A DNA stretch of 64,000 nucleotides from an uncultured Acidobacteriota bacterium (GTDB lineage Bacteria > Acidobacteriota > Thermoanaerobaculia > Multivoradales > DATKCC01), in contig CAVUJU010000002.1 of the NCBI GenBank assembly GCA_963741925.1, positions 595,978 through 659,977 of the forward strand. Reading direction: 5' to 3'. The first letter of the stretch is position 1. Every line of letters begins with the position of its first letter. The notes beneath the pieces are model-generated. The model was not told where the DNA came from and did not search any database. It saw only the letters and a program-made list of their open reading frames with translations. The position numbers and the translations under genes are program-made. Positions 7,599-64,000 of the stretch are shown here, piece after piece.

Positions 7599-10022
<2,424 letters not shown>

Positions 10023-10097
10023 CGACGCGTCTCCTCCTCCCCTCTAACGCACGAGGCCGCGCGAGGTTGCGAAACGGGGGCGAACGCCGGGCGGCCA

Positions 10098-10260: not shown

Positions 10261-10540
10261 AGCCGGCCGGCCCGTCGTTCTCGGGCTCGCCCGCGCCCGT
10301 CACCTCGGCGAGCAGGGCGCGGGCCTCCTCCTCGTCCTCCCGCGGCACCCGGAGGACCGCCCCGAGCCCCCGCTTGCCGAAGAAGCCGGGCGTCGTCAGG
10401 GGAAAGAGGCCGAGCGAGGACTCCCCCTCGACGACGAAGGGGATGTCGGCCGAGGCGAGCACCGACTTCGCGAGGCCGAGCTCGGCCATGTCGTGGGTCT
10501 GGAGCAGCTCGACCCAGGCTTCGCTCCCACCGCCGGCCAT
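10259..10540 (-). CDS. DUF2007-like small protein
   Basis: 93 aa (MAGGGSEAWVELLQTHDMAELGLAKSVLASADIPFVVEGE...). Its ATG lies 2 nt after the gdhA stop. Confidence 0.45.
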   Translation of the reverse strand: MAGGGSEAWVELLQTHDMAELGLAKSVLASADIPFVVEGESSLGLFPLTTPGFFGKRGLGAVLRVPREDEEEARALLAEVTGAGEPENDGPAG

Positions 10541-10542
10541 GG

Positions 10543-31035: not shown

Positions 31036-31276
31036 CGATCGTGCTGCCGTAGTCTGCGACGAGGCGGCGGATGAAGCGCCACTCCTCGGGGCTCGGTTCG
31101 GCGAGGACGTGGAGGTGGCGCCAGCCGGATTCGTAGCGCCGGAGCATGTCGAGGGGCGAGAGGGACCTGTAGTCGCGGTCGAACCAGGAGATGCTGGCGA
31201 GGAACGGGAGGTCGCCCGGAGGCTTGAGATCCGCCTCGTCTCGAGGGTCACGCCGGGGCTCTGCCGTCCTCTCCAT
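31022..31276 (-). CDS. 84-aa hypothetical protein, translationally coupled to the AbiEii-like gene (candidate antitoxin)
   Basis: MERTAEPRRD...LSPLDMLRRYESGWRHLHVL... with ATG at 31276. GTACAATCG lies 8 nt upstream. Confidence 0.4.
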   Translation of the reverse strand: MERTAEPRRDPRDEADLKPPGDLPFLASISWFDRDYRSLSPLDMLRRYESGWRHLHVLAEPSPEEWRFIRRLVADYGSTIDVPA

Positions 31277-31286
31277 GGTGAGTCCG

Positions 31287-31293
31287 ATTGTAC
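31287..31293 (-). promoter_or_regulatory. -10-like GTACAATCG upstream of the 84-aa gene
   Basis: cgaagTACAATcggactcacc ATG. Confidence 0.35.
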
Positions 31294-31326
31294 TTCGGGC
31301 CCGAGAGTCGGCTCGATCCTTCCCTC

Positions 31327-31743
31327 CTACGGCTCGTTCTCAATGCCGTCCGCCTGCACGACCCGCCGGATCAGGCGTTCCTCGATGGGGCGCCGCATGA
31401 TGAGGACGTCCTCGCGTCGGCCCGGGAGAGTCGCCGTGAAACGGTACCGACGGGAAGGGTCTCGATCCACCACCAGGCATCCGTGCTTGAGGACCTGGAA
31501 GGCGAGGATCGGCGAGGCCTGGTCCAGATCGACAAGGTCCACGGCGCGGCCCAGGAGCGCCTCGGCGTCGGCCCGGAGGTCGGCGAGCTTCGCCGCCGAC
31601 AGCCGCTTGCGCGCCAGCACCGCGACGTCGAGATCCGAGTCGGAGCGGGCACGACCCGCGGCCACGGACCCGTAGACCCACAAGCAGTCCACGCCGAGGC
31701 GCTGGTCGAGGAGGTCGAGCAGCTCGCGGGGAAAGGCGTCCAT
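31327..31743 (-). CDS. MNT-type nucleotidyltransferase domain protein
   Basis: LWVYGSVAAGRARSDSDLDVAVL. Start MDAFPREL at 31743 with GTACAATCG directly upstream. Confidence 0.6.
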   Translation of the reverse strand: MDAFPRELLDLLDQRLGVDCLWVYGSVAAGRARSDSDLDVAVLARKRLSAAKLADLRADAEALLGRAVDLVDLDQASPILAFQVLKHGCLVVDRDPSRRYRFTATLPGRREDVLIMRRPIEERLIRRVVQADGIENEP

Positions 31744-31751
31744 GGCGAGTC

Positions 31752-31758
31752 GATTGTA
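31752..31758 (-). promoter_or_regulatory. -10-like TACAATC (context GTACAATCG) 8-9 nt upstream of ATG; candidate leaderless promoter
   Basis: The same 9-mer context recurs at 31287-31293 and 19338-19344. GCTACAATC at 22112-22118 and GCTACATAT at 61914-61920 sit upstream of other minus-strand gene starts. Confidence 0.35.
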
Positions 31759-31879
31759 CTTCCAGCACCCGCCGGGGTTTTCCCCCGCCCGGGCTCCCCT
31801 GCTTCGGCGCACTCTTCGAGCGCGCCGTCGGTCGGAACGACCAGGAGAGAGGAGGACGACGCGCGGAGCGCGATCGGCC

Positions 31880-32562
31880 TCAGCTCGCCGGCGGGGCCGG
31901 CTGGGCGGCCTTCTGCTTGGCGGCGCCGACCAGGTCGAAGGCCTCGCGGCGCATCTTGGCGCGCTGGACGTCCTCTTCGGGGAAGCTGGGGCGGTAGCCC
32001 AGGCGGTCCTCGTCGAAGGTGAAGGGCTTCATCAGGTCCACCTTGCCGACGATCGACTGCTCGCGCGTGAAGTAGGCCATGTCGTAGTTGTTCGACATGA
32101 TGATCGCCTCCTCCGGACAGGCGTCCACGCAGTAGCCGCAGAAGACGCAGCGCAGCATGTCGATCTCGTAGACCTCGGGGAACTTCTCGATGTTCTCGTC
32201 CGGCTGCTCGCCGGCCTCGATGTGGATGCACTCGGCCGGGCAGTTGGTGGCGCACAGGAAGCAGGCCACGCAGCGCACCGACCCGTCGGGCCGCGTGGTG
32301 AGAATGTGGTGGCCGCGGTAGCGGTGCGAGTACTGGCGCCGCTCCTCCGGGTAGTTGATCGTGTACTCGGGGCCGTGGAACAGATTCCGGAAGAAGTGGC
32401 GCAGGGTCACCATCATGCCGGCCACGAGCGGCAGGTAGAGCCGCTCGCCGAGGCTCGGCCGGTAGGGCTCGACCTCGGTCGGATGGTAAACCGGGGGCGG
32501 CAGCGGACGGCCGGAAGCGCCGCCTTGCGGGTGGGCGTGGAGCGGCGGCGAGGGTTGGCTCA
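31880..32562 (-). CDS. nuoI: NADH-quinone oxidoreductase subunit I (2x[4Fe-4S])
   Basis: CVACFLCATNCP and CVFCGYCVDACP motifs. Start MSQPSPP overlaps the nuoCD stop. Confidence 0.85.
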
Positions 32563-47293: not shown

Positions 47294-48205
<912 letters not shown>

Positions 48206-48235: not shown

Positions 48236-48475
48236 CTACGAGCTCTCTTCTCGCGCCTGGTCGATCAGCCGGACGAGGGCTTCCGCCGCATCCTTCTGGG
48301 AGGACGGCAGAGTTTCCCACAAGCTCCAGAAGGCCTCCTCCATGAGCTCGTAGGCCGGGTCCCCCTTGATCTGCGCCAACGCCATCAGGCGGCGCTTGGC
48401 GTCGGGTGTCAGTCGGGCCGTGAACGGCTCGAGGTCCCGGACCCGTCCGGCGCTTCCTGCTTTCTTCGCCGCCAT
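48236..48475 (-). CDS. 79-aa hypothetical protein (first ~37 codons duplicated at 61984-62092)
   Basis: MAAKKAGSAGRVRDLEPFTARLTPDAKRRLMALAQIKGD... Confidence 0.4.
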   Translation of the reverse strand: MAAKKAGSAGRVRDLEPFTARLTPDAKRRLMALAQIKGDPAYELMEEAFWSLWETLPSSQKDAAEALVRLIDQAREESS

Positions 48476-48599
48476 GGGCTAGAGCTTGGAAGAGAAGAGA
48501 CCTCGTTGTCAAGACAGTCGCCTGGTTGGATTCTTGGCGCTTTGATTCCTGTCCTGCGGCTCGGCCGGTTGACCCTTCCTGCTCGAGACCGCGAGATCC

Positions 48600-49280
48600 G
48601 GTTTCGCCGCCTTCGCTCCGAGAGGAGGAAGCCCCGGGAGTCGTAGTTGAAGAGCCGGGTCTGGGTGAACGAGGTCCCGGCGGCGTTCTTCGCCGTCTGG
48701 CTGACCCGCGCGAGGCGCGAACCCACGTCATAGGAATAGGTCGTCGTCGAGTCGCTGCCGTTCGGGTTCGCCGGCTCGAAGACCTGGTAGAGCCGCCCCT
48801 GGCGGTCGTAGATCTCGGTCGTGGTCGCCGAGGACTCGGTGACCGCCGTGCCGTTCCAGGCGGTGCCGACCTTCACCGTGCGATCGACCTGCCGGACGCC
48901 GTGGTAGGTCAGGGTCACGTCGTGGGCCGAGCCGTCGGGCGGCTGGATCAGCGTCGGGCGGCCGAAGGGGTCGAAGTTTCGATAGATCGTCGCGGAATTC
49001 GTCGCCCACCCGGTCTTCGACCTCACCCAGCCCGCCGCGTTGTAGTTGGTCGCCCGGCTCGAGATCGTGCCGTCGGCCATCGTCCGGCGCTCGAGGGAGA
49101 CCCGGCCCAGGCCGTCGAAGTCGAGCTCCCGGGTCGAGAGGGGCGAGCCGCCGCCGTGGGGCTTGCGGTAGATCCAGACCTTGGGCGGGTCGGTCGGGGC
49201 GCTGTAGAGGAACTGGGTCCGCCCTTCCTGGGCCGGCAGGACCAGGGTCGGCCGCCCGAGGACGTGTCCGGTTGGCAATC
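48600..49280 (-). pseudogene. truncated RHS/YD-repeat gene fragment (no start, no toxin tip)
   Basis: Encodes ...VLGRPTLVLPAQEGRTQFLYSAPTDPPKVWIYRKPHGGGSPL...FNYDSRGFLLSER, near-identical to the internal parts of 56199-61102 and 52259-55135, then diverges into non-coding read-through. Confidence 0.7.
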
Positions 49281-51315
49281 GGGATAGGCCCGGGCGAGCA
49301 AGCCCGCCCGGGTCCCCCCACAGATCCGGACGTGCGGATTTCCCGCATCCGGCTCCTCGTGACACGGGTTCGCTGCACGACGTCAAGCGGCGTGGACGAT
49401 CTTCGGCCGCGGCAAGGGGTAGGCGCCGAGGAGGCGGACGAACCGCTCCCAAGGCATCGACCTCTTGCCCGACCGCCGGTCGAGCCACTTGCGCCACTCG
49501 CGCGTGACCTGGCGGTAGAAGTTGTCGAGTGCGTGGAAGTTGCCGGTAATGCCGTAGTAACCGTAGTGGCCCTGCAGCGCTCGCGACAGCCGTCGCTGCT
49601 GCGTCGCCACGGGGTCGTGACGGCCCTGCCGACACCGTTCCCGCATCCGACTCATCGACCGAGCAAACCGACTCGCGGCCGTCGTGCGCTTGACCACCCA
49701 CGACCCTCGCTGGCGCCCACCCTTGCCCCAGAAGTGCGTGAACCCGAGGAAGACGAAGGTGCCCGGACCCTCGGGCCCGGACCCGTCGCTCCCCCACCGT
49801 GGCCGGCGGAAGCGCACCCGTCGCGTCTTCTCCGGGTGCAGGCGCAGACCGAAGCGGGCGAGCCGCTTCGGCAGCACCTCTTCCACCCGACGGGCGTCGT
49901 GCTCGTCGGCGAAGACGATCACCAGATCGTCCGCATACCGCACCAGCACAGCGCGCCCACGAAGCCGCGGTTGGACCTCTTCCTCCCACCACCGGTCCAC
50001 CACCTCGTGAAGGTAGACGTTGGCCAGCAAGGGCGAGATGACGCCTCCCTGCGGAGTCCCCGCCTCGGGGTGACGTACACGCCCCTCTTCCATCACACCC
50101 GCCTGCAGCCACTTGCCAATTGCCCTCCGGATCACGCCGTCGCGCACCCGGCGGTCGAGAAAAGACCTCAAGTGGTCCCGATCCAGCTCGTCGAAGAAGC
50201 TCTGGATGTCGACCTCCAGTACCCACCCACCCCCGAGCTCGGAGAGCTCCTTGCGCAGAACGCGCAGCGCATCGTGCGCCGAGCGACCGGGCCGAAAGCC
50301 GTACGAGCAGTCCAAGAAGTCCTCCTCGTAGATGGCCTCCAGCACCATCGTCACCGCACGCTGCAGCACCTTGTCTTCGAAGGTGGGGATCCCGATCGCA
50401 CGGGTCTCCGACCCGGTGCCTTTCGGAATGTGAGCCCGCTGGACCGGCGGCGCTCGGTAGAGGCCTGACTTGAAGCGGTCGAGAAGCGACCGGAGGTTGC
50501 CCCCGAGGTTCTCCTCGTACTGCTTCGCCGTCCGGCCGTCGATGCCTGGCGCTCCGTCCTTGCGGGTCCGGGAGTAGGCCTCCCAGAGCCAGTGCTCGTC
50601 GATGTAGTGAGCCAGACTGAGAAACGACCGCTCGTGGTCCTCCCTCGCCAGCCTCGCTATCCGACGAAGTCGCGTTGAGATGCTCCCGAGATTCGGCGAT
50701 CCCGACATCGTTCCCCTCGTTCGGTTCCGTGTCCCGGAGCCCCCCTTCCCTCCACCGGGTCCCTTGGGTCGGTTCCCCGGCTTCCACGGTACTACGGGGG
50801 CTCTCTGACTCCCCACCACCCTTCCCGCCGGGCTCGGTTTCCTTCGCCGGGCGGTACCGCCTGTGCGACCGCTCCTTCGCTCCCGGGGTGCGCGGTCGGC
50901 CTCGACCACGGGCCTGGATCTTGGGTCAGCCGGGACCCTCACCGGCACGTTCTTCGGCGGAGATGGAAGGGCCTCCCAGGTTCCTGGAGGGACCCTTGGA
51001 CGTATGCCGTGCTCTCTGACCCCGGCCGAGCCCTTGCGCCAGGCCATTGCGGCGCTCGGGTGCTGTCGCCCGTTCCACTACAAGGACGACCTCAGCGAGA
51101 CGTGCATTTCGAGGCTCCATCACACGGCCTCCGCCCTCGCTGTCTACGCTTCGCAGGTGCCCTTGCGGTGCCGCCCACGCAAGACTCGCTTCTGGCTGGT
51201 GGCCAACCTTTGCCAGGCGGGGCTCACACCCGCCGGGTCCCATCTGGAAAGTTTCCGGCTCTGTTGACCCGCGTCTACATCACCTTCCTCCTTCCCCAGG
51301 CTTTGCCTGGCGCAC
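49280..51315 (-). mobile_element. group II intron (~2.0 kb) with intron-encoded RT/maturase
   Basis: The reverse-strand 5' end is GTGCGCCAGGCAAAGCC (51315 downward). The domain V hairpin GAGCCGGATGCGGGAAATCCGCACGTCCGGATCT lies at 49302-49338, followed by a domain VI-like helix. The IEP ORF lies in the domain IV position. Confidence 0.75.
49383..50708 (-). CDS. group II intron-encoded reverse transcriptase/maturase (no En domain evident)
   Basis: RT motifs RAIGIPTFEDKVLQ, PQGGVISPLLANVYL, RYADDLVIVF and the maturase/X region WLQAG...FLGFTHFW. SD GAGGGGAA precedes the ATG at 50708. Confidence 0.85.
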   Translation of the reverse strand: MSGSPNLGSISTRLRRIARLAREDHERSFLSLAHYIDEHWLWEAYSRTRKDGAPGIDGRTAKQYEENLGGNLRSLLDRFKSGLYRAPPVQRAHIPKGTGSETRAIGIPTFEDKVLQRAVTMVLEAIYEEDFLDCSYGFRPGRSAHDALRVLRKELSELGGGWVLEVDIQSFFDELDRDHLRSFLDRRVRDGVIRRAIGKWLQAGVMEEGRVRHPEAGTPQGGVISPLLANVYLHEVVDRWWEEEVQPRLRGRAVLVRYADDLVIVFADEHDARRVEEVLPKRLARFGLRLHPEKTRRVRFRRPRWGSDGSGPEGPGTFVFLGFTHFWGKGGRQRGSWVVKRTTAASRFARSMSRMRERCRQGRHDPVATQQRRLSRALQGHYGYYGITGNFHALDNFYRQVTREWRKWLDRRSGKRSMPWERFVRLLGAYPLPRPKIVHAA

Positions 51316-51401
51316 AGTGGCTGGCACCTCTCCGCCGGCACCAGGGTCGGCCGCCCGCGAGGACGTCACCGGTTGAAAGGCGGCTGGCACCTCTCTACAG
51401 C

Positions 51402-52262
51402 TTACCACCCCTCTTTAGCAGCGGTCACTCGTATGAGCAACGGGAGCTGGAGCTCGATCCGCGCGTTCGCGCTAGAACCGGTAGGTCTCTGTTCCAAGTG
51501 ATAGACGAAGGTGGTCGTCAAGGTCTTGCTCGTTTCGGGGCGAAACTGCCATGTTTCGATGTTGGCGGCGGCCTCGGCGCCGAGAAGGCGTTCTCCCGAG
51601 AGCAGCTTCGTGGAAATCACCTTTCCTGCCTGCACTACGACTTTCAAGACCACTTCGCCCGAAATTCCGGCTCGCCGAGCCATCTCAGGATACTTAGGTA
51701 CTTCCGCCGCAACGACTAGAGGCGGCTTTTCCTCCGTTCGAAATCGGATTACCCTGGCAGCGATCTCGCGCGGCGCGGGATGCGCTTCGAGAACCTCGTT
51801 CACGACAAGCTTGGTGCGGAAGCCGTCAAGATGCCCATATCGCCTTCCAGAAACCCGATTCGCATACGCCACAATGGGATTCACTGACAAGTCCTCGGGA
51901 CCCAAAGGCTTCGGGCCGTAGAGTTCGCCGCGAATTGTGACCGAGGCAGAGTGGGACGCCTCGAGAATTCGATCTAAAACGTTACGCCCTGGAGCCTGCG
52001 AACTGACTTCGACCCACGTCGAGGGCTGGACGTCCCATGGGCACAGTGGGTAGTCCGGATCAAAAAAGACCTGTTGCTCCATGCCACTCAGGATTACTCC
52101 AGAGAGGCGAACAGGGATCCGTTGTCCCGCGTTCGCCCTTACCAATGCGGAGCAGAGGTAGAGAACTTCTTCCTGGTTCCTCGCAGTTTGAGCCGGCTGG
52201 CCGCCCAGCACGGTCAGAAGAATTGCTGCTCCTACGCTCAGAGTGATGCTCTTCATAGTCAT
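51402..52262 (-). CDS. exported protein with C-terminal TonB_C-like domain; candidate immunity protein of the orphan RHS toxin
   Basis: Signal peptide MTMKSITLSVGAAILLTVLG and a C-terminal PKYPEMARRAGISGEVVLKVVV. GC is ~50%. It lies immediately downstream of the RHS C-terminal tip. Confidence 0.45.
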   Translation of the reverse strand: MTMKSITLSVGAAILLTVLGGQPAQTARNQEEVLYLCSALVRANAGQRIPVRLSGVILSGMEQQVFFDPDYPLCPWDVQPSTWVEVSSQAPGRNVLDRILEASHSASVTIRGELYGPKPLGPEDLSVNPIVAYANRVSGRRYGHLDGFRTKLVVNEVLEAHPAPREIAARVIRFRTEEKPPLVVAAEVPKYPEMARRAGISGEVVLKVVVQAGKVISTKLLSGERLLGAEAAANIETWQFRPETSKTLTTTFVYHLEQRPTGSSANARIELQLPLLIRVTAAKEGW

Positions 52263-55135
52263 TGCCAGTCTGGAAGCTGGCGTGGCCCTTGGTCCTCGGG
52301 ATTTACGTGGTAATCGCCACTAGGGTTTGCCAAAATTCTCTTGATGGCCATGTTCACTTCTGCGTCCGTCTTCAATCCACCACCGAGAACGCACCCGCTG
52401 CAGCCGGTCGAGTATCGTTCGCCGGCCTGTCTGTACACGGAGTTAGTCAAGTGGAAGGCATTGGTCTCGGTCTGATAGACAGTCAGGTTCTTAGATATGT
52501 CATATGTAACCCACGGCGCGGACGGCAAATTCTGGAAAGTGCTGACAAACGCGCCAGCATCAAGGAGATGTTGTCCTTCGTGAGCGACAGCCGCTCTCAG
52601 CTCGGTCCCATTGAGACCTGGTTTTAGAGTGACGATTCCGCCCAATAGCCAGCTGCCATCGGCGTTGTTCTGCGCGTATGCCTTGGTCGTGCCGCTAGCT
52701 TCTTTGGTATCGCCGAAAGCCACCGTGATGCCGTTGCTCTCGCCAGGCTCGCCGTAAGAGAGAGCTGCATTTCGGACTGCTTCGTCCTTGCTCTTGAGGT
52801 CCTCTTGACGTGCGTTCTCGAAGGAGGCGGAATCTTTCTTGCACTGCCCTTCGTCGTCGATGGAGCAATTCACAACATAGTTGCCGGTCGGATCTGTGTA
52901 TTTGAGAGGATTGTCCTCGGTGTACGCATAGCGATTCCACGACTGCGGCTGGCGAGCGTTTCCGAGAACTGGGTCCACCCGTAGGAACCGCCCGAGCTGG
53001 GGGTTGCAGAACCTCGCATGCATGTAGTCCAAGTCGTCGGCCGCCGAGCTCGTATTGGCGAGATCTCTCTCGTGGCCGGCGAATTTCATGCGCTCGGTGT
53101 CCTGGGTGGGGTTCGTCGCCTCTTCGCCGAAGGGGAAGTAGGCGTGGTAGGCGAGGCCCTGGCCCGAAGCGTTGGTGATGAACCGGACCGAGCCCAGGTG
53201 GTCGAGGTGGAAGTGCTGGACCCCCGAGGGGGTGACCGCCGCCAGGAGCTGGCCGCCCCGGTAGACGTAGTCCCGGTCGACCGACCAGCCGCCGCCCAGG
53301 TTCTTGTAGTCGCGCAGGACCTTGCCGTCCAGGTCCCGGACTGTCCAGTGTGAGGTGTTCGCCGCCAGGTCGTAGGACCAGATCCGCTCGCCGTCGGCCG
53401 TGTAGAGGTAGAGCCAGTCCTTCGAGCCGGGGTTGAAGTCCCACATCTGATCGAGGGCATCGTACTGGTAGGCGTTGCCGTTCCAGGACGTGAGGTTGCC
53501 CGCGGCGTCGTAGGAGACCGCGCCGGTCAGCCGGTTCGTGGTCGAAGAGGTGGGCGTCGAGCGGCCGGTCTTCGTGGTCATGGCCTGGAGGTTTCCGAAG
53601 CCGTCGTACGTGTGGCTGAAGGCGTAGCCCCCCGCGGCCGTGCCGCCGCCCTGGCCGACGTACTGGACGCCCGAGAGCACTCGGTTCACCTTGTCGTAGA
53701 GATAGTACGAGCTCCCCATCTTGGTCACGTCGCCGGCGCCGTCGAAGGTGTAGAGCCCGGTCTGGTAGAGGAGCGTCGTGCCGCGCCTGGCCTCGATCTT
53801 CTGCGGCCGGGGGAGGTTGTAGGGGTCCTTCGCGTAGGTGTCGGTCACCCAGGTCGCGGCGTTGCCCGGCGTGTTGACGTGGGTCACCTGGTTCACCTGG
53901 CCGTTCGGGTGGTAGGTGATCGAGCTCGAGTAGCCCGGCACCGCGGTCAGGAAGCCGTTGGTGTAGGTGGGGCTCACAGTCCGAACCGTCCCGGCAGAGC
54001 AGCCCGCCTGCGTGCACCGCGGGTAGGTCACCGACGCCGGATCCCCCAGGTCGTTCCAGACCCAGCTCTGGGTGAAGCTCTCGGCAGCCGAGCCGTTGAC
54101 CACGTTGACCGTGTTGCGATTCGAGACCCGTCCCTCCTTGCCCCCGTAGGCGTAGGTCTCATCGATCTCGACGGTGTAATTCGTCGCTCCGATCACCGGG
54201 TAATTGTACCCCCGGGCCACCTGGAGCTTGCCCAGGCGGTAATCGCCCGCGCCGTTGGCCGTGGCGAAGGTGAAGCTCTTCAAGGGGCGGTAGAGGCCGA
54301 AGCCCTGCGACTCCTCGACCTTGGTCAGTCGCTCGGCCCCGTCGTAGGTGAAGCGGAGGGTATTCGGCCCGTCCGTCATCTGCCCCGCGTGGCCCCGGGC
54401 GTCGTAGCTCCCGTAGGTGACGTAGCCGTTGCCAGAGGACCCCGTCTCCGGATGGCGCTCCGAGAGGAGGAAGCCCCGGGAGTCGTAGTTGAAGAGCCGG
54501 GTCTGGGTGAACGAGGTCCCGGCGGCGTTCTTCGCCGTCTGGCTGACCCGCGCGAGACGCGAACCCACGTCATAGGAATAGGTCGTCGTCGAGTCGCTGC
54601 CGTTCGGGTTCGCCGGCTCGAAGACCTGGTAGAGCCGCCCCTGGCGGTCGTAGATCTCGGTCGTGGTCGCCGCGGACTCGGTGACCGCCGTGCCGTTCCA
54701 GGCGGTGCCGACCTTCACCGTGCGATCGACCTGCCGGACGCCGTGGTAGGTCAGGGTCACGTCGTGGGCCGAGCCGTCGGGCGGCTGGATCAGCGTCGGG
54801 CGGCCGAAGGGGTCGAAGTTTCGATAGATCGTCGCGGAATTCGTCGCCCACCCGGTCTTCGACCTCACCCAGCCCGCCGCGTTGTAGTTGGTCGCCCGGC
54901 TCGAGATCGTGCCGTCGGCCATCGTCCGGCGCTCGAGGGAGACCCGGCCCAGGCCGTCGAAGTCGAGCTCCCGGGTCGAGAGGGGCGAGCCGCCGCCGTG
55001 GGGCTTGCGGTAGATCCAGACCTTGGGCTCTCGTCGCTTCCTCGGATTGACGTGATCAAATTTAAAGTTCGCTCTCCGGCCGAAGAAGCCACTTGGCGTT
55101 GCTATGTAAGACGCTCGGCGTGGTCTCTTGCGCAA
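52259..55135 (-). CDS. orphan (5'-truncated) RHS repeat cassette with alternative C-terminal toxin domain
   Basis: From KVWIYRKPHGGGSPL through ...CNPQLGRFL it is ~95% identical to the main RHS gene. After the YTDPTGNY boundary it continues into a unique ~250-aa C-terminus. A unique 37-aa N-terminus provides the start. Confidence 0.7.
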   Translation of the reverse strand: MRKRPRRASYIATPSGFFGRRANFKFDHVNPRKRREPKVWIYRKPHGGGSPLSTRELDFDGLGRVSLERRTMADGTISSRATNYNAAGWVRSKTGWATNSATIYRNFDPFGRPTLIQPPDGSAHDVTLTYHGVRQVDRTVKVGTAWNGTAVTESAATTTEIYDRQGRLYQVFEPANPNGSDSTTTYSYDVGSRLARVSQTAKNAAGTSFTQTRLFNYDSRGFLLSERHPETGSSGNGYVTYGSYDARGHAGQMTDGPNTLRFTYDGAERLTKVEESQGFGLYRPLKSFTFATANGAGDYRLGKLQVARGYNYPVIGATNYTVEIDETYAYGGKEGRVSNRNTVNVVNGSAAESFTQSWVWNDLGDPASVTYPRCTQAGCSAGTVRTVSPTYTNGFLTAVPGYSSSITYHPNGQVNQVTHVNTPGNAATWVTDTYAKDPYNLPRPQKIEARRGTTLLYQTGLYTFDGAGDVTKMGSSYYLYDKVNRVLSGVQYVGQGGGTAAGGYAFSHTYDGFGNLQAMTTKTGRSTPTSSTTNRLTGAVSYDAAGNLTSWNGNAYQYDALDQMWDFNPGSKDWLYLYTADGERIWSYDLAANTSHWTVRDLDGKVLRDYKNLGGGWSVDRDYVYRGGQLLAAVTPSGVQHFHLDHLGSVRFITNASGQGLAYHAYFPFGEEATNPTQDTERMKFAGHERDLANTSSAADDLDYMHARFCNPQLGRFLRVDPVLGNARQPQSWNRYAYTEDNPLKYTDPTGNYVVNCSIDDEGQCKKDSASFENARQEDLKSKDEAVRNAALSYGEPGESNGITVAFGDTKEASGTTKAYAQNNADGSWLLGGIVTLKPGLNGTELRAAVAHEGQHLLDAGAFVSTFQNLPSAPWVTYDISKNLTVYQTETNAFHLTNSVYRQAGERYSTGCSGCVLGGGLKTDAEVNMAIKRILANPSGDYHVNPEDQGPRQLPDWQ

Positions 55136-55156
55136 GCCAACAGCAATAGGCCCAAC

Positions 55157-56179
55157 TTACTGCGCGTGATGCAGTGATTGTCTCCAAACTGTCTCAGACT
55201 GGGGTCTGGGTCCAGTGGTCGTGACAAAGACAAGCTCCCTCTCCTCTGCGTTGGAGGCGTCGACGAGCAGCCGATCCGCTCCCGCTCGACGCACAGTCGT
55301 TGGTGACAAGCTTTCGGAGCGCCAGACTTCCCACTTGCTCAGCTCTTCGTCGATCGTCTCGATGTGGCAGTTCTTGGGGTGCGTGGGGCTGACCACCTCG
55401 CAGCTTGCGACGTAGGCTTGCTCTCCTTGTCCGTAAATCCACAAGACGTTCTTTATCTTGAGCTGATCGAGACTAAAATCCTTCCAGATGTACACTCGAT
55501 CGCCTTTCCTAAGCAGTAAGCTTGCTCCGACACGGACAACATCATCTGGCAACCAAGACCAAGGGAAAGTATGATCGACGAACCGCCCGAGCGGGTCGAC
55601 CTCGCGGAGAGCTACGCCTCCGTCAAGCCGCCGGAAGCAGGTCGCTCTTCCGTCTTCTCCGAACCGGGGGAAAAGGCAATCGAGCGGCAAGAGAAGCGAC
55701 CTCCGTAAAGGCCCTCGTGCTGACATAGGTGGGATTTCGATGTCGCACATATCAATATCTATTGTTGCGTTACAAAGAATGACGTCGCCAGCTGCGTCCT
55801 CGGCAGACACGGCTGAGAGACCAAGAGCCATGTCGAGGTATCTCGAGGTCATAGGGGAACCTCCCTCGTCGAGTACGAGAACCCTGCCTTCTTCCTGGTG
55901 TCCCCGGAGAAGCACCACGGTTGACCCCGATGAGGTCTGCCAGAAGGAGCTGATTAACCGAGCATTCTGGCCCTTCAGAAGCGGCTCCCATCCGCGCTCA
56001 ATACTCCACGAACATATGCCATCATCTTGTGGGCATAAAAGAGCAAAGCCCACAGGACTCTTCGACGTCGGTGAACTCTCAGCGCTTAGTGAGAAGCCAA
56101 GTCTCATGGCCAGTGCTCCGAGGACTATCAAGGAGCGTGAGACGTGAGAAAGCTTAGCGGTCAGGCGGTATCTTCTCAT
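55157..56179 (-). CDS. low-GC hypothetical protein; candidate immunity protein for the main RHS toxin
   Basis: Possible start MRRYRLTAKLSHVSRSLIVLGALAM (signal-like); the track ORF alternatively starts at 56218. GC is ~52%. It sits directly downstream of the RHS toxin tip. Confidence 0.4.
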   Translation of the reverse strand: MRRYRLTAKLSHVSRSLIVLGALAMRLGFSLSAESSPTSKSPVGFALLCPQDDGICSWSIERGWEPLLKGQNARLISSFWQTSSGSTVVLLRGHQEEGRVLVLDEGGSPMTSRYLDMALGLSAVSAEDAAGDVILCNATIDIDMCDIEIPPMSARGPLRRSLLLPLDCLFPRFGEDGRATCFRRLDGGVALREVDPLGRFVDHTFPWSWLPDDVVRVGASLLLRKGDRVYIWKDFSLDQLKIKNVLWIYGQGEQAYVASCEVVSPTHPKNCHIETIDEELSKWEVWRSESLSPTTVRRAGADRLLVDASNAEERELVFVTTTGPRPQSETVWRQSLHHAQ

Positions 56180-56198
56180 GGACGGTTTCTCTGTATCT

Positions 56199-59100
56199 TC
56201 AATAGTCTTGGTGCACAAGCCTGTCGAGCAGATCCCGGCCAGCTCTCAAAGAACCTAGACCTGAAATTGCGTTTAGCTGTTGCTGTCTCTCCCTTCTGTT
56301 CCTTGGTTTCTTTGCTTCTTTCAAATCTTTGGCGATTTGCTTCTGAGCCTTGAGCGCCGCGTCCGACTCGTAGCCGGTGTATGATAGCCGAACTCCCGTT
56401 TCATTTTTTTTGAAACGCGCCTTAAGTGTCATTCCTGTTTCGCGCAGCTCCAAAACGTGGAACAACTCGTGACCGACGCGGGCAGCTCCGTAGTCGCCGA
56501 CTCGTAAGTGGATGACTACGCTCACTGCCCCGTCCTTGTAGAGAGTTTGGTCTTGGACGGCGTCGCTGCCCGGCGGCGACGTTGCCTGGGGAGCTCCAAA
56601 GTCCACGAGTACTTCGCTGGCTGGAAGGTTGTCTAGGGCTGTAAAGATTCTTTCGAACTCAGCGCTGTGAGAACGTCCGCTTGTGACGCTTTCCTGTAGC
56701 CAGTCGGGAACACGTACTTCTTGACCGTCGGGATCAGTCAAAGTTAGTGGGTTGGCTCTTGAATAGAGATAACGGTTCCAGCTCTGTGGCTCGGCTGGCA
56801 CAGCTGCCTCGGTAACATCAGTCGAGAGAAACCGCCCAAGCTGCGGATTGCAGAACCTGGCATGCATGTAGTCGAGGTCATCCGCAGCCGAGCTCGTATT
56901 GGCGAGGTCGCGCTCGTGCCCGGCGAATTTCATGCGCTCGGTGTCCTTGGTGGGGTTCGTCGCCTCTTCGCCGAAGGGGAAGTAGGCGTGGTAGGCGAGG
57001 CCCTGGCCCGAAGCGTTGGTGATGAAGCGGACCGAGCCCAGGTGGTCGAGGTGGAAGTGCTGGACCCCTGTGGGCGTGACGGCCGCCAGGAGCTGGCTGC
57101 CGCGGTAGACGTAGTCGCGATCGACCGACCAGCCACCGGGGCCGTTCTTGTAGTCGCGCAGGACCTTCCCGTCCAGGTCCCGGACCGTCCAGTGGGAGGT
57201 GTTCGCCGCCAGGTCGTAGGACCAGATCCGCTCGCCGTCGGCCGTGTAGAGGTAGAGCCAGTCTTTCGAGCCGGGGTTGAAGTCCCACATCTGGTCGAGG
57301 GCATCGTACTGGTAGGCGTTGCCGTTCCAGGCCGTGAGGTTGCCCGCGGCGTCGTAGGAGACCGCGCCGGTCAGCCGGTTCGTGGTCGAAGAGGTGGGCG
57401 TCGAGCGGCCGGTCTTCGTGGTCATGGCCTGGAGGTTTCCGAAGCCGTCGTACGTGTGGCTGAAGGCGTAGCCCCCCGCGGCCGTGCCGCCGCCCTGGCC
57501 GACGTACTGGACGCCCGAGAGCACTCGGTTCACCTTGTCGTAGAGATAGTACGAGCTCCCCATCTTGGTCACGTCGCCGGCGCCGTCGAAGGTGTAGAGC
57601 CCGGTCTGGTAGAGGAGCGTCGTGCCGCGCCTGGCCTCGATCTTCTGCGGCCGGGGGAGGCCGTTCGGGTCCTCGAAGTAGGTGTCGGTCACGCCGTTCG
57701 TCCGGACGACCTGGTCGACCTGGCCGTTCGGATGGTAGGTGATCGAGTTGCTGTAGCCCGGCACCGCGGTCAGGAACCCGTTGGTGTAGGTGGGCGTCAC
57801 GGTGCGGATCGTCCCGGCCGCACAGCCCGCCTGGGTGCACCGCGGGTAGGTCACCGACGCCGGATCCCCCAGGTCGTTCCAGACCCAGCTCTGGGTGAAG
57901 CTCTCGGCAGCCGAGCCGTTGATCACGTTGACCGTGGCGCGATTCGAGACCCGTCCCTCCTTGCCCCCGTAGGCGTAGGTCTCATCGATCTCGACGGTGT
58001 AGTTCGTCGCTCCGATCACCGGGTAATTGTACCCCCGGGCCACCTGGAGCTTGCCCAGGCGGTAATCGCCCGCGCCGTTGGCCGTGGCGAAGGTGAAGCT
58101 CTTCAAGGGGCGGTAGAGGCCGAAGCCCTGCGACTCCTCGACCTTGGTCAGTCGCTCGGCCCCGTCGTAGGTGAAGCGGAGGGTATTCGGCCCGTCCGTC
58201 ATCGTCCCCGCGTGGCCACGGGCGTCGTAGCTCCCGTAGGTGACGTAGCCGTTGCCAGAGGACCCCGTCTCCGGATGGCGCTCCGAGAGGAGGAAGCCCC
58301 GGGAGTCGTAGTTGAAGAGCCGGGTCTGGGTGAACGAGGTCCCGGCGGCGTTCTTCGCCGTCTGGCTGACCCGCGCGAGACGCGAACCCACGTCATAGGA
58401 ATAGGTCGTCGTCGAGTCGCTGCCGTTCGGGTTCGCCGGCTCGAAGACCTGGTAGAGCCGCCCCTGGCGGTCGTAGATCTCGGTCGTGGTCGCCGAGGAC
58501 TCGGTGACCGCCGTGCCGTTCCAGGCGGTGCCGACCTTCACCGTGCGATCGACCTGCCGGACGCCGTGGTAGGTCAGGGTCAAGTCGTGGGCCGAGCCGT
58601 CGGGCGGCTGGATCAGCGTCGGGCGGCCGAAGGGGTCGAAGTTTCGATAGATCGTCGCGGAATTCGTCGCCCACCCGGTCTTCGACTTCACCCAGCCCGC
58701 CGCGTTGTAGTTGGTCGCCCGGCTCGAGATCGTGCCGTCGGCCATCGTCCGGCGCTCGAGGGAGACCCGGCCCAGGCCGTCGAAGTCGAGCTCCCGGGTC
58801 GAAAGGGGCGAGCCGCCGCCGTGGGGCTTGCGGTAGATCCAGACCTTGGGCGGGTCGGTCGGGGCGCTGTAGACGAACTGGGTCCGCCCTTCCTGGGCCG
58901 GCAGGACCAGGGTCGGCCGGCCGAGGACGTCGTACTGGTAGGTGGTGGCGAGCCCCGAGACGTCGCGGCTCGTCTTGACCAGGCCGCTCCCGAGGTCGAT
59001 CACCCGATCCAGGGACTTGAACGGCTGGCCCGAGTACTGCGAGCTCGCCAGCACGCCGGCCTGGTAGCTGTGGTCGATCTGGTACCTCGCGGCCGGCAGG

Positions 59101-61102
59101 GCGAGCCCGCAGAGGCCCCCGGTCCCGAGGCCCTGCGTGTCGCCGCCGAAGAACTTCTCGCTCGTGACGTTGCCCACGCCGTCGCGGACGTAGACCGTGA
59201 CGAGGTCGGTCGAGCTCCGGGTCGTCCCGCTCCGAAGCGTCCGGGTACTCGTGAGAGCGCCCGTCGTGCCGTCGAAACAGGCCTCGGTTTTGGCCGTCAC
59301 GCCCCCCTCGGTGACCGTTTGGTAGGTGTAGGTGCCGAGCAACCAGGCCGCGCCTGTCGCCGGCGTGCAGGTGGCGCAGGAGCCCGGGTTGTAGTTGGTG
59401 AAGGTGGTGCGCACGTTGCCGGCGGCGAAGTTGCCGCCCGTCGCGACCTGGCGGTAGTGGCCCAGGCCGTCGAAGCTCGAAGAGTTTGTGTCGGCAAAGG
59501 TCCCGCCGTCGTCCACGTAGACCGTCCGCTCCGAGGCGACCCGCGGGTTGAAGTCCTGGCCGCTCGACTCGTAGCGCACGTAGATCCGCCGCTTGACCGC
59601 GCTCGCCCCCTGGCGGATCTCGCTCGAGAGGAACCGAGTGCCGCTCGCGTCCTTGGCGTTGCGGGTGAAGGGCAGGCCGTAGTCGTGGTACGACCAGCCG
59701 CCCGGGTCCGGGTCCTGGGTGGAGCAACCGCTGATCCCAGGCTGGCAGGCGTAGACGCTGAAGTAGTGGGTCGTCTGGTTGCCGAGGGGGTCGGTCACGG
59801 TCGTCGTCGACGCGCGCCCGATGCCGGAAGAATCGGAGGTGAACCCCTCCTGGTAGGTCCACGTCCCCTCGACCGTGCCGTCGGCCTGGACCGTCTGGCG
59901 CTGGACGACCCCCACCGAGCGGCTGAAGGGCCGCAGGCCGAAGCCACCGCTGGGCCCCTGCTTCAACACCCCGCCCAGAGTCTCGGACCTCTTGGGGAAG
60001 AGGTAGTAGTTCCAGCTCCACCGGAGCGTGCCGTGGGTCGGGAGCGTCATCGAGAGCAGGTGGGCCGACCGGCTGTCGGTCTGGGCGAGGTCGCAGGCGC
60101 CGTGGTACGGGCCGGGGTCGTAGGTGAAGTCATAGGCCGGCACCTGGCTCTGCGGCGTCCGCGGGTCGCTCCGCGTGATGCTCGTCAGCAGCGGGACGAC
60201 CACCGTGGTCGAGGCGTAGGCGCACGAGAGGGCCGGATCGGTCATCCCTCGCGTCACCTCGGTCCCCGAGTAGTGGAAGGTGTAGGTGAGCGTCTGGCCG
60301 CCGAAGGCGGTCACGACCACCCGGTCCACGACGCCCTCCTTGTACACCTTCGCGAGCGCCGGCGCCGGCTTGAAGTAGATCATCTGGACCCGGTGGAGTG
60401 AGTCGGTGAGCCTCCAGTTCTCGAGGCCCGGGTAGGTTGCCGAGGCGAGGTACTCGATGTTCAGGAAGTTGCCGAACCGGTCTTCGATCCGGGTGGGCCG
60501 TTCATTCCCCGTCTTCGAATCCTTCACCAGATCACGCCGGGTGCCGTCGGGGAACTCGAGAACGTGGGGCGCGACGCTGGTGTTGTAGCGCAGGTAGGTG
60601 CTGTCCTTCGTGTACTTGAAGCCGGTGGCGGTCGACCCTCCGAGGTGGAGGCTGACGGCGAGGGGGTGTTCGGCTCCGTCGGGGCTCCGGTAGCCGCCCG
60701 GGTTGGTGTTGGTGGTCGGCTCGACGGTCCCGAAGGAGAGGTGCCAGCCGAGCCCCGAATTGTCTGAGGCCCGAGGCACGGCCATCAGGTAGTAGCCGCC
60801 GGTGGCGAGGTTCTCGTCGAGCTCGTAGTCCCAGACATTGCCTGTATACGTCAAGACGAGGGGTACAGAGAAGCCGCCGTTGACCGGGTACGAGGCGAGC
60901 GGAATCTGTACCGTGAGGTTTCCGTTGAACTCGTTGATGCTGTCGAGGTCCCCGAGCTGGTAGAGGTGCTCGGGCTGGAAGCCCTGGGCGTGATTCGGGT
61001 GCTGGAGGCCCGCGGCCGGCAGGGCGGCCAGGGCGAGGAGTAGGGCGAGCCCGGCGGCCGGGCGAAGGGTGGAAGGGCGGGGCGAGGCGGAAGGGCTCAT
61101 GG
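56199..61102 (-). CDS. full-length RHS/YD-repeat protein with signal peptide and C-terminal HExxH toxin-like domain
   Basis: Start ATG 61102 with GGAGAG SD, then signal MSPSASPRPSTLRPAAGLALLLALAALPAAG. Many YD repeats, an RHS core ending ...TDPDGQ, and a C-terminal ~215 aa containing GHELFHVLE. Confidence 0.8.
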
Positions 61103-61126
61103 TCGTCTCTCCGGGGCGGGGTCGGT

Positions 61127-61900
61127 TCAGGGCTCTTGGCCCGGCGGCACCAGCCGGGCGGCGAAGTAGTCGAGGGTGTCCAGGTTGACCGCCATCACCA
61201 CGTCGCCGACGGCGAGCTCGGCCGGCGGTGCCGGGGCGGCCTCGATCGGAAGGGCCGAGGCGAGGTCGACCTCGGCGCCGGCAGCCGTCGGGCTGCCTTG
61301 CGCCCCGCGCGACGCCGCCCCGCGCCAGGCCCCCACCCCGGGCCGGACGAAGAGGACCTCCGCCCGCTCCCAGGAGGTGTGGAGCCGCCTCACCACGCCC
61401 CCCGGCGCCTGGGCGAGACCGTCGGCCGGGAAGGCGACCTCGTGGGCGATCGACCCCTCCGGGCTCGCGAGGCCGAGCTCGCCGGTGCCCGTGTCGATCG
61501 CCGCCCAGACCGAGAACGGGGCGACGCCGTCCGGCACTTCGTAGCGGAGGGTGCCCGTCGCGTCCGCCGTCAGGACCTCGTCGGTCGGTACCAGCGCCCA
61601 GTAGTAGACATCGTGGTAGCGGCTCACCCCGTGGAGGATCACCTCCGCCGCCGGCCCGAGGCCGCTCACCACCACCGCGTCCGGCTCGAATGCGATCTCC
61701 GGCGGCGAGCTCGCCGCCGGCTTCAAGGGGATCGGTGCCATCGCCCCCGCGGCGACCGACCCCGCGAGGAACGAGGTGAGGACCAGGAAGCCGACCCGCC
61801 AGGAGGCACGAAGCGGCCTCGCGACCCGGCAACCAGGAGACCAACGTCCGTAACCCCGCGAAGGATCTGTCGCGGTCGAGTCCTTCGGTCTTCTTGTCAT
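61127..61900 (-). CDS. hypothetical membrane-anchored/exported protein upstream of RHS
   Basis: MTRRPKDST...RVGFLVLTSFLAGSVAAGAMA, about 255 aa. The track ORF 61127..62110 extends 5' into the duplicated small-gene fragment. Confidence 0.4.
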   Translation of the reverse strand: MTRRPKDSTATDPSRGYGRWSPGCRVARPLRASWRVGFLVLTSFLAGSVAAGAMAPIPLKPAASSPPEIAFEPDAVVVSGLGPAAEVILHGVSRYHDVYYWALVPTDEVLTADATGTLRYEVPDGVAPFSVWAAIDTGTGELGLASPEGSIAHEVAFPADGLAQAPGGVVRRLHTSWERAEVLFVRPGVGAWRGAASRGAQGSPTAAGAEVDLASALPIEAAPAPPAELAVGDVVMAVNLDTLDYFAARLVPPGQEP

Positions 61901-61983
61901 GAGCATTCTCCCAATATGTAGCGAAGCGTCGGGCCCTGTCCGAGCGGCCACCGCGCCGGGCTGCGGGACCACCTGGCCGCCCT

Positions 61984-62092
61984 CGATCTGCACCAGTGCC
62001 CTCAGACGACGCCCGGCGTCGTGCATCAGGCGAGCCGTGAAGGGCTCGAGATCCCGGACCCGCCCATCTGCTTTGGCTTTCTTGCTGACCAT
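61984..62092 (-). pseudogene. 5' fragment (about 37 codons) duplicating the small gene at 48236-48475
   Basis: MVSKKAKADGRVRDLEPFTARLMHDAGRRLRALVQIEG versus MAAKKAGSAGRVRDLEPFTARLTPDAKRRLMALAQIKG. The nucleotide similarity extends a few bp upstream of both ATGs. Confidence 0.6.
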
Positions 62093-62294
62093 GGGCTTGA
62101 GCTTATACACGGAGATGTACGCATGTCAAGAACTTTCTGCATTGAGATTCCTGGCGCCCAGATTCACGCCGGCGGGCTGGCGGAGAGCTTCCGGGGCCTT
62201 CCGGGTGGCCGGCCTCGGGTGACACAGGGTTCAGGTAGAGCGAGGATGACCTGGCGGGCCACCGACCGGCGAGCGGGCGATTGTCGGACCTGGC

Positions 62295-63581
62295 CTATCG
62301 CCAGGTCGCGGCCCGCCGGCGCAGGGCCTCGGCCTCGGCCACCTTGGTCGGCAACTCGAGCCGGCGGAAGACGGGGAGGGCTTCCTCCGTCAGGCGTTCG
62401 ACCTCGTGGCGTTCATGCTGGTCGGCTTGGAGCTCGGCCAGATCGAGTGCCACATGCGCCGCGTCGTAGAAGAGACCGACCGCAGCGAACTCGCTGCGGA
62501 CTCCGGTGAGCCCCGCGAGAGCGTCTTCCCGGTCGCCGCCTCGCCGGGAAATCTTCGCCATGACCCATCTCTGTCGAAGTCGGCTGATGGCATCGCTCTG
62601 GCGCTCGAAGAGCTCCTCGCTTTCGCGGGCCACTCGGATCGCCTGCTCCAGATTGCCGGCGTCGCATTGGTAGTTCACGAAATGCTCGCGCGCGAAGCGC
62701 AGCAGGCGCGCGTCCGGTGCCGCCTGCAGCACCCTTTCAACTTCGCCAACAGTTGCCAGGGCAGGTTCAAACTGACCCTGCCTGCTCTGTGCCCGACCCA
62801 GGTTGAGGAGCGTCGAAGCGGCCAATCGTGGCCTGCTCTCCAGGCGGTACACCATCAATGCGCGCAGTAGGCGCGAGATTGCCAGGTGAGGGCGCCACTG
62901 GTCAGTCCGGAGACTCCCTTCGAGACCATCCAGCTCCGCCCGGAGAAGGCGGTCGCCGCAGCCGAGGGTGCGGAAGAAGTACCGGGCGTCGCCCAGGATT
63001 TGATCGGCCCGCGGCAGGTCGCCGATGACCCGGATCGCGTTGGCCAGGTAGGCGAGGGCGCGGACGTAGAGCTCGCAGGCGTAGGCGGAGAGTGGAGTGT
63101 GGTGGAGGACGAGGCGGGCGAGGCGGGCGTGGGTGGCCGCTTCCTTCGGACGCTCCGGGGCCTTCTTCCGGCTGTCCTCGATGAGCATCTCGGCCAGGAG
63201 GAGGCCCGCGAAGCGCTCCGGCTCGCGGCGGACCCGCTCCGCCTGTTCGGCGGGCGAGAGGCGAAGGAGCTCCTCGGCCCCGGAGCGGGCCTCACGCTCT
63301 TCGGCCGCGGCCCTGGCTTCCTGGGCGCCCGGCACGTCGTTCGAGTTGGCGGGCTTGGGCGCCACCCTGGCCCGGAACCGATCGAGGACCGCCTCGTAAT
63401 CCTCGGGGCCGGTCGCGGGGACGCCCTCGCCCAGCTCCCGGCGCCAGGACTGAAACTCCCTACGGCACCGCGGGCAGAGCTCGAAGAGGTGAGCCAGGGC
63501 GATGGCGGCCAGGTCGCCGGGGTTGCGCCAGCCGCCGGAGATCGCCCGGAAGAGGTCGCGGGTGACGTGCTCGTCGGTCAC
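62295..63581 (-). CDS. hypothetical alpha-helical/TPR-like protein
   Basis: 428 aa with no catalytic motifs. A partial paralog lies downstream of 63837. Confidence 0.4.
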   Translation of the reverse strand: MTDEHVTRDLFRAISGGWRNPGDLAAIALAHLFELCPRCRREFQSWRRELGEGVPATGPEDYEAVLDRFRARVAPKPANSNDVPGAQEARAAAEEREARSGAEELLRLSPAEQAERVRREPERFAGLLLAEMLIEDSRKKAPERPKEAATHARLARLVLHHTPLSAYACELYVRALAYLANAIRVIGDLPRADQILGDARYFFRTLGCGDRLLRAELDGLEGSLRTDQWRPHLAISRLLRALMVYRLESRPRLAASTLLNLGRAQSRQGQFEPALATVGEVERVLQAAPDARLLRFAREHFVNYQCDAGNLEQAIRVARESEELFERQSDAISRLRQRWVMAKISRRGGDREDALAGLTGVRSEFAAVGLFYDAAHVALDLAELQADQHERHEVERLTEEALPVFRRLELPTKVAEAEALRRRAATWR

Positions 63582-63836: not shown

Positions 63837-64000
63837 TCGATCTTACGCGCTGGCGGCTCGCCGAACCAAGCTCTCGGCCTCGACCACCTTCGTGGGAAGC
63901 TCCAGCCGTCGGAAGACAGGGATCGAGTCCGCCATCAAGCGCTCCACCTCGTGGCGATCTCCCTGGTCAGCGTAAAGGCGAGCGAGGTTTAGTGAAGCCA
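63837..64000 (-). CDS. 3' end of a paralog of the 62295-63581 gene (continues past window end)
   Basis: Nucleotides 63850-64000 are ~75% identical to 62295-62450, with the same C-terminal coding end. Confidence 0.4.

Follow-up and report, generated by a model that had tools for sequence, protein, structure and literature searches.

A probable Sec-dependent RHS polymorphic-toxin locus with two HExxH tips in an uncultured Acidobacteriota bacterium

A 64-kb stretch of DNA from an uncultured Acidobacteriota bacterium (assembly GCA_963741925.1, contig CAVUJU010000002.1), referred to below as the window, carries on its minus strand a full-length RHS gene followed by an orphan RHS cassette and a tip-less RHS fragment. 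This arrangement raises the question of what kind of toxin system is encoded here: by which route its product would leave the cell, what the C-terminal tips and the genes behind them are, and how the shorter copies arose. The data make it quite probable that this is a Sec-dependent RHS (YD-repeat) polymorphic-toxin locus. The type of system is textbook; what is new, at the level of families, is the two tips and the immunity partners that go with them.

An earlier note made from the sequence of the window had listed the elements of the array, and family and Rfam searches together with self-BLAST recovered each of them, on the minus strand and roughly at the positions given there (Table 1). The full RHS gene, whose ATG is preceded by a GGAGAG ribosome-binding site, contained the YD repeats (PF05593 and YD_repeat_2x), the core (TIGR03696) and the HExxH tip (HELFH) attributed to it. 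RHS_repeat (PF05593) was found in the main gene, the orphan and the tip-less fragment (fragment 3), and TIGR01643 in the main gene and the orphan; the Rhs-associated core TIGR03696 was past its cut-off in both the main gene (8.7e-14) and the orphan (3.7e-14). The core ended in ...NPLTLTDPDG in the main gene and in ...NPLKYTDPTG in the orphan, the tip starting right after DPxG. A low-GC immunity candidate followed the main gene, and the orphan carried a different tip, as had been described, with HEGQH in unrelated sequence after the end of the shared core; behind it lay the TonB_C-like immunity candidate, the intron and the tip-less fragment. Two details changed. The HExxH tip credited to the main gene is there, but the orphan tip has such a motif as well, and the exported protein encoded upstream of the RHS gene, which had been given 255 amino acids (aa), is present but comprises 257 from the best ATG with a ribosome-binding site. 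The open reading frames (ORFs) of the RHS gene (1633 codons), both immunity candidates (imm1 and imm2), the orphan and the intron reverse transcriptase (RT) were intact, and GC content at third codon positions (GC3) was 0.83-0.85 in the long RHS ORFs, typical of coding sequence, and lower (0.61) in imm1.

With regard to export, the main RHS protein showed a hydrophobic segment at aa 18-32 (Kyte-Doolittle maximum, 2.36), from which the chain runs straight into the first shell strands. Strongly hydrophobic N termini were observed in the RHS protein, its upstream partner and both immunity candidates, and were absent from the orphan ORF, the RHH (ribbon-helix-helix) protein and XerD. Signal-like N termini were also present on two related proteins, P0010 and the RHS protein of the related locus L001. 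No PAAR, VgrG or other N-terminal trafficking domain was matched in the main RHS protein in Pfam or NCBIfam, and none of the ~38 ORFs scanned across the window was a type VI secretion system (T6SS), VgrG, Hcp, EagR, PAAR or TcA gene. Because of this signal-like N terminus, the lack of PAAR and the lack of T6SS markers in the window, the locus was assigned to the Sec-dependent RHS class, and the toxin appears, from its sequence, to leave the cell by the Sec signal-peptide route and not through a T6SS. The 'T6SS-type' label of the earlier note was accordingly dropped, since the RHS protein begins with a signal-like segment; the displaced-tip architecture proposed together with it gained strength, each tip adjoining the same kind of downstream gene on unrelated contigs.

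The two tips share no BLAST-level similarity. Distinctness of the C-terminal regions was a point on which the earlier note had let its own reading depend, and the tips indeed proved to be separate families. Neither matched a Pfam family at E<=10, toxin families such as Tox-MPTase included, save for a spurious DapB_N hit (0.14), and nothing was found for either in NCBIfam, PADLOC or PDB sequence searches. Tip 1 corresponds to the C-terminal ~175 residues, just past DPDG. A word-index search of 5.8 billion proteins returned no relative of it; 11 emerged when 1.84 billion cluster representatives were scanned exhaustively with HMMER, most of them with RHS-core residues upstream. In the resulting 12 sequences G94, H95, E96, H99, E102, E129 and S130 were invariant, forming a G-H-E-x-x-H-x-x-E motif followed 30 residues downstream by E-S-x-x-A. 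The AlphaFold model of tip 1 (pLDDT 85) consisted of a three-stranded sheet and then the HExxH helix (residues 90-106). No significant Foldseek match was obtained for it in PDB. Its best structural neighbours were light chains of the botulinum type together with GtgA and NleC, effectors directed at the host. Judging from the model, a zincin fold is likely for tip 1.

For its part, tip 2 had just three homologues among 5.8 billion proteins. Two of these keep RHS-core residues at the N terminus, both being short, orphan-sized products, and in the four sequences AHEGQH and the downstream E149 were invariant. The profiles of tip 1 and tip 2 aligned from the end of the core through the HExxH helix (hhalign probability 80%, E 1.4e-5). 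The tips would then be distinct families, probably of one superfamily of zincin toxins.

The genes downstream of the tips recur with them elsewhere. The tip-2 homologues P0001 and P0002 each precede a TonB_C protein, of 285 and 268 aa, on the related locus L002 and on a JGI contig; the L002 TonB_C protein is 62% identical to imm2 of the window, and the corresponding tips are 70% identical. Similarly, the closest tip-1 homologue (P0004, 52% identical; locus L003) precedes a gene whose product is 45% identical to imm1 over residues 18-349, signal-like N terminus included. Imm1 had no family match in Pfam (E<=10), NCBIfam, PADLOC or PDB sequence searches. Imm2 has a signal-peptide-like N terminus, a ~160-aa domain without known family and TonB_C at aa 189-253. 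It was not accepted as a bona fide TonB, as no Pro-rich spacer was visible and the unrelated ~160-aa domain stands in its place. Recurrent linkage to the tips together with matching low GC is the standard genomic signature of toxin/immunity pairs, and both downstream ORFs are regarded as candidate cognate immunity genes; since these candidates are predicted to be exported, action of the toxins in the envelope or periplasm is implied.

Self-BLAST confirmed that the orphan shares about 2 kb at about 95% identity with the main gene. The repeat (52983-55028 in the orphan, 56827-58851 in the main gene) spanned 2047 nucleotides (nt); its copies were 95.36% identical, differing by 72 mismatches and 9 gaps, and similarity stopped inside the core, at 56827/52983, the sequences beyond being unrelated. 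The tip-less fragment (48614-49265) was 99.08% identical to positions 58279-58930 of the main gene and 99.65% identical over 573 nt to positions 54456-55028 of the orphan. The match between main gene and orphan was a mosaic, with ~99% identity over the first ~950 nt, a variable patch, ~99% again, and then ~92% up to its end inside the core. Orphan-style arrays were also found in independent assemblies (L001, L002 and L003). In L001, from a metagenome-assembled genome of Acidobacteriota, two pieces of RHS core or shell come after an RHS gene; L002 carries a row of three orphan tips, each paired with an immunity gene; and in L003 the RHS gene is followed by the imm1 homologue and then by another core fragment. 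Because the copies are non-identical and mosaic, and because independent assemblies show the same style of array, a simple assembly duplication appears an unlikely source of the repeats. Within the otherwise ~99% identical shell, the variable patch (57600-57800 in the main gene, 53760-53990 in the orphan) contained 57 differences with indels, and P0004 on L003 had the allele of the orphan. Such a pattern points to RHS shells that are allelic mosaics or have undergone gene conversion with one another. A diversity-generating retroelement was considered and rejected, given that the RT is part of a complete group II intron, that the patch has indels and that the orphan allele is shared with P0004.

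On this basis, the system may be pictured as follows. The RHS protein would be exported by Sec; its YD shell would encapsulate the tip, to be released by Rhs aspartyl autoproteolysis at the core. The tip would be a zinc-dependent enzyme that hydrolyses a target in the envelope or periplasm of neighbouring bacteria, most likely as a peptidase, and the exported proteins encoded downstream would neutralise it in the periplasm of the producer. The orphan could have originated when an incoming tip/immunity pair recombined in the conserved shell or core and displaced the old pair downstream. The direct repeats of 2 kb (95%) and 0.65 kb (99%) would still permit tip switching or deletion: a switch to tip 2 through the 2-kb repeats would cost tip 1 and imm1, and recombination with the 652-nt fragment would inactivate the RHS gene.

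Table 1. Features of the RHS locus and its borders, in reading order along the minus strand
Feature	Position	Strand	Basis or remark
TPR gene (428 aa)	62295..63581	minus	Pfam TPR_12; N-terminal H-x3-C-x2-C; first gene of the conserved module
Promoter-like TTGACA/TATAAG and first ~41 codons (ATG 62092) of a truncated RHH-like gene	61970..62150	minus	Self-BLAST, alignment
Exported partner protein (257 aa), predicted	61127..61900	minus	Hydrophobic N terminus; no known domain matched
Main RHS toxin gene (1633 aa)	56199..61100	minus	PF05593, TIGR01643, TIGR03696
Tip 1, zincin-like toxin domain (putative)	56199..56735	minus	HELFH; 54% GC
Immunity candidate 1 (340 aa)	55157..56179	minus	Signal-peptide-like N terminus; 56% GC
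Orphan RHS cassette (5'-truncated, 958-codon ORF)	52259..55135	minus	Shell and core homologous to the main gene
Tip 2, other HExxH toxin domain (putative)	52259..52882	minus	AHEGQH; conserved Glu in QTExNA; 55% GC
Immunity candidate 2 (286 aa, TonB_C)	51402..52262	minus	PF03544 1.8e-9; TIGR01352 5e-9
Unit A, unsplit copy of the ~62-nt junction sequence	51334..51395	minus	Read from the sequence, aligned
Group II intron, 2038 nt	49278..51315	minus	RF02005, RF00029, TIGR04416; RT/maturase ORF 49383-50708
Tip-less RHS fragment, 652 nt	48614..49265	minus	Shell only; without core, tip or start; self-BLAST
Full-length small RHH-like gene (79 aa)	48236..48475	minus	Paralogue of the truncated 62-kb copy; distal array border
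xerD	47294-48205	minus	XerD equivalog; after the full-length RHH gene in reading order

The description of the array as a low-GC island was not borne out. The contrast of about 50% with about 70% GC on which it was based is approximately right for the tips (0.54-0.55) and immunity genes (0.56-0.58), set against a background of 0.73, but not for the whole toxin region, which is 65% GC and whose RHS shell stands at 0.68. Low GC is thus restricted to the two tips and the immunity genes, and the head of the locus is conserved in relatives. L001 has genes for a TPR protein, a full-length RHH protein, the exported partner and RHS in the order of the window, and its DNA is 76% identical to the partner and RHS genes of the window up to the end of the RHS core; L004, a metagenome contig, has RHH, partner and RHS. 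Because the order of the module is conserved in L001 and L004, head and body of the locus are, on sequence grounds, lineage-conserved and not a foreign insertion; the tips and immunity genes alone look imported. The tyrosine recombinase gene at the distal side that could have been taken for an island, integron or shufflon recombinase was rejected as such, being that of housekeeping XerD (XerD equivalog, 375 bits against a cut-off of 329.6).

Comparison with described systems is in agreement with the Sec-dependent assignment. Zhang et al. 2012 (PMC3482391) described a Sec-dependent ('T2SS/Sec') class of RHS toxins with metallopeptidase tips (Tox-MPTase1-5 and Tox-HopH1). The locus shares with that class the signal peptide, RHS repeats, core and C-terminal HExxH in the absence of any other trafficking domain, as well as standalone 5'-truncated cassettes downstream that are able to recombine with the full gene. 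It differs from it in that the tips match no Pfam toxin model (E<=10) and that both have recurrent exported partners.

Main and orphan genes delivered by the T6SS make up the enterobacterial rhs arrays of Salmonella, Escherichia coli and Dickeya. As in these, a main gene and its immunity gene precede an orphan that lacks its 5' end and brings a tip and immunity gene of its own, the tips are lower in GC, and the shared core would likewise allow recombinational tip switching. In contrast to them, there is no PAAR, VgrG or T6SS context here, the toxin is a predicted Sec substrate, the immunity proteins are predicted to be exported, and the module is headed by TPR, RHH and the exported partner. 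WapA of Bacillus subtilis and Streptococcus suis is a Sec-exported YD-repeat toxin (PMC12704120). It has the same Sec signal peptide, YD shell, polymorphic C-terminal toxin, downstream immunity gene and independence from the T6SS, but belongs to monoderm bacteria, is anchored to the wall and has nuclease tips and cytoplasmic immunity, whereas the present locus comes from a diderm phylum, with tips and immunity proteins predicted to act in the envelope. VgrG2b of Pseudomonas aeruginosa is a periplasm-acting C-terminal metallopeptidase toxin with periplasmic immunity (PMC6899460); it differs in being fused to VgrG, fired by the T6SS and devoid of an RHS shell, and has no sequence similarity to the tips found here.

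Several points weigh against a working Sec-dependent toxin locus. The signal-peptide-like calls were based on hydrophobicity only; the AlphaFold model of tip 2, built from four sequences, was unusable (pLDDT 36); and each tip/immunity pairing was seen in just one or two other loci. In addition, the head of the locus is altered. A 226-nt stretch unrelated to L001 (61754-61980) takes the place of the RHH gene's 3' half and of the partner's usual signal region, and looks like a rearrangement scar. The signal region of the partner differs from that of four relatives, P0016, P0017 and P0019 having a different, shorter N terminus, and in the public annotation of the source genome the partner is a 204-aa product starting at 61741, without signal region. 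Given the truncated RHH gene and the altered partner signal region, the toxin system could be impaired. A further point is that the genome could carry T6SS genes outside the window.

The first of the alternative explanations follows from these alterations: the locus might be a decaying, non-functional remnant, no longer expressed or exported. The truncated RHH gene at the head, the unrelated 226 nt in place of the usual signal peptide of the partner, and the presence of a tip-less fragment and a selfish intron would all be in accordance with decay. However, the RHS, immunity, orphan and intron RT ORFs are intact and the GC3 of the long RHS ORFs is coding-like, the replacement N terminus of the partner is still hydrophobic, and a promoter-like TTGACA-16 nt-TATAAG is still found at the head, so that we consider a remnant unlikely.

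It is from T6SS-associated loci of Enterobacteria that Rhs arrays with a main and an orphan gene are best known, and the gene scan spanned the 64-kb window and not the rest of the genome; the array might then be the locus of a T6SS-delivered Rhs effector, with the T6SS, VgrG and chaperone genes located elsewhere in the genome. This is very unlikely, since Rhs effectors of the T6SS have a PAAR or VgrG-binding region at the N terminus and are not exported by Sec, whereas the protein encoded here starts with a signal-like segment and then the shell, no VgrG, Hcp, EagR or other T6SS gene occurs in the window, and the genes conserved upstream in relatives encode TPR, RHH and the exported protein, not VgrG or a chaperone.

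Finally, an anti-eukaryote or insecticidal Tc-like BC toxin, with downstream genes that are accessory and do not confer immunity, is highly improbable, for even though Tc toxins and teneurins have RHS cocoons too and tip 1 has botulinum-type light chains, GtgA and NleC as its best structural neighbours, no TcA-like or SpvB/TcdB_mid domain was found in the RHS protein or the window, and the downstream genes share the low GC of the tips and recur with them in orphan cassettes, a signature of interbacterial self-protection (PMC3482391).

As a Sec-dependent RHS system, the locus adds to the RHS repertoire two rare, uncatalogued HExxH tip families, each with a recurrent exported candidate immunity partner. 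Earlier catalogues give no immunity partners for metallopeptidase RHS tips; that of PMC3482391 gives no immunity family for the MPTase toxins, and TonB is unmentioned in it. It also documents, in soil Acidobacteriota, a recurrent module of TPR, RHH, exported partner and Sec-type RHS. To our knowledge, there is almost no experimental work on interbacterial antagonism in Acidobacteriota.

Within this module, the exported partner, whose gene comes just before that of the RHS protein, is the obvious candidate to help it through the outer membrane. The ATG of the partner has a GGGAGA ribosome-binding site, its conserved part begins at 61741, and the protein had no match in Pfam (E<=10), NCBIfam, PADLOC or PDB sequence searches. 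Its homologues P0016-18 are 59-82% identical, P0019 is a >90% relative, and in both L001 and L004 the partner gene immediately precedes an RHS gene. The module offers in this way a concrete candidate helper gene for the exit of a Sec-exported RHS cocoon from a diderm cell. A bolder proposal, which we rate as quite unlikely, is that TPR, RHH, the 236-257-aa partner and the Sec-signal RHS protein together form a T6SS-independent diderm delivery system in which the partner aids the cocoon across or onto the outer membrane, and that, in addition, the TonB_C immunity protein mimics the substrate of its toxin. If such substrate mimicry were true, the tip-2 metallopeptidase would kill by cutting the TonB C-terminal domain in the periplasm of the target.

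The borders of the array are formed by members of small gene families. TPR genes encoding H-x3-C-x2-C (anti-sigma-like) were observed in tandem or at both ends of RHS arrays. Besides the copy in Table 1, the window contains the 3' end of a paralogue (63849-64000); in L001 the copies lie at 201-1493 and 9992-11281, where a fragment of RHS shell passes straight into the second copy, and in L002 at 4107-5384 and 5421-5613. Direct repeats were also detected at the borders, 61980-62104 and 48363-48487 being 79% identical over 127 nt by self-BLAST, with an extension to about 62150 and 48533; their positions happen to agree with the limits of the array given in the earlier note. They correspond to the promoter and the 5' coding part of the small RHH gene, which is truncated in the 62-kb copy and full length in the 48-kb copy, where the 79-aa gene lies directly upstream of xerD. 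Its family match is just a weak one to RHH_4 (0.088). At the head, the RHH ATG is only ~9 nt past the -10-like TATAAG, and the RHH mRNA could be leaderless. A full-length RHH gene occupies the head position in L001 and L004. In L005-L007, TPR-RHH pairs occur without RHS, the small RHH gene being multi-copy in the lineage, and the distal RHH copy need not, for that reason, be the remnant of a second module. The border repeats were rejected as att-like sites, as they are parts of an RHH gene that heads the RHS module in relatives and also exists without RHS.

The group II intron was complete. Its RNA matched RF02005 (domains D1-D4) with 128.3 bits (gathering threshold, 49) and RF00029 (D5/D6) with 47.1 bits (gathering threshold, 40), D5 having the usual 34 nt, and the intact RT/maturase of 441 aa matched TIGR04416 with 339.6 bits against a cut-off of 300, and RVT_1 with 1.5e-32. 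The intron starts with GUGCG at 51315 and ends with ...CCCGAU at 49278. The loop of exon-binding site 1 (EBS1) in D1 (AGUGG) can pair with CCACU, the last five bases of the 5' exon (IBS1), a pairing of 5 bp only that was read by eye from the sequence. Inserted in the sense orientation of the operon, in the spacer between imm2 and fragment 3, the intron begins 86 nt beyond the TonB_C stop codon, and 12 nt separate its 3' end from the point where fragment 3 becomes homologous to RHS. Bacterial group II introns of the RF02005 (D1-D4-6) type, with an RT/maturase lacking the endonuclease domain, have the same hallmark domains and the same intergenic, sense location, and the sole oddity here compared with typical ones is the target, the second of two tandem 62-nt copies where an RHS fragment begins. 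Ligated exons would rebuild this second copy of a ~62-nt sequence that lies intact immediately upstream and spans the point where non-RHS DNA gives way to fragment 3. The tandem copies, one whole (51334-51395) and one split by the intron (51316-51333 plus 49235-49277), read GAGAGGTGCCAGCC...CAACCGG..ACGTCCTCGGGCGGCCGACCCTGGT..GCCGGC and differ around the insertion point (GCCTTT versus ACT|TGC). The motif was absent from the related loci compared. The arrangement was regarded as a putative tandem duplication of local origin, one copy of which carries the intron. The intron target as a hairpin, attC site or terminator was rejected, the 5' flank folding no better than shuffled sequences (z-score, +1.47). 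The intron is probably a selfish insertion in a non-coding spacer, with no demonstrable role in the toxin system.

The remaining ORFs of the window were of the housekeeping type (asparagine synthase, NADH dehydrogenase subunits, 2-oxoacid:ferredoxin oxidoreductase, a MacB-type transporter and glutamate dehydrogenase), together with two small nucleotidyltransferase-based pairs of the toxin-antitoxin or defence type. One of these, at 6848-7588 on the plus strand, combines an NTP_transf_2 gene with a HEPN gene, as is typical of toxin-antitoxin or defence modules; in the other, at 30331-32028 on the minus strand, an AbiEii-type nucleotidyltransferase toxin gene adjoins a Pol-beta-type nucleotidyltransferase gene, with a GC3 of ~0.80, below that of its neighbours. 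The segment 1-6800 had a GC3 of 0.73-0.78, compared with >0.9 elsewhere, and contains genes for a UvrA-like ABC ATPase paralogue (294-4784, 1496 aa) and a TauD-family dioxygenase (4565-5464); it may be another acquired segment.

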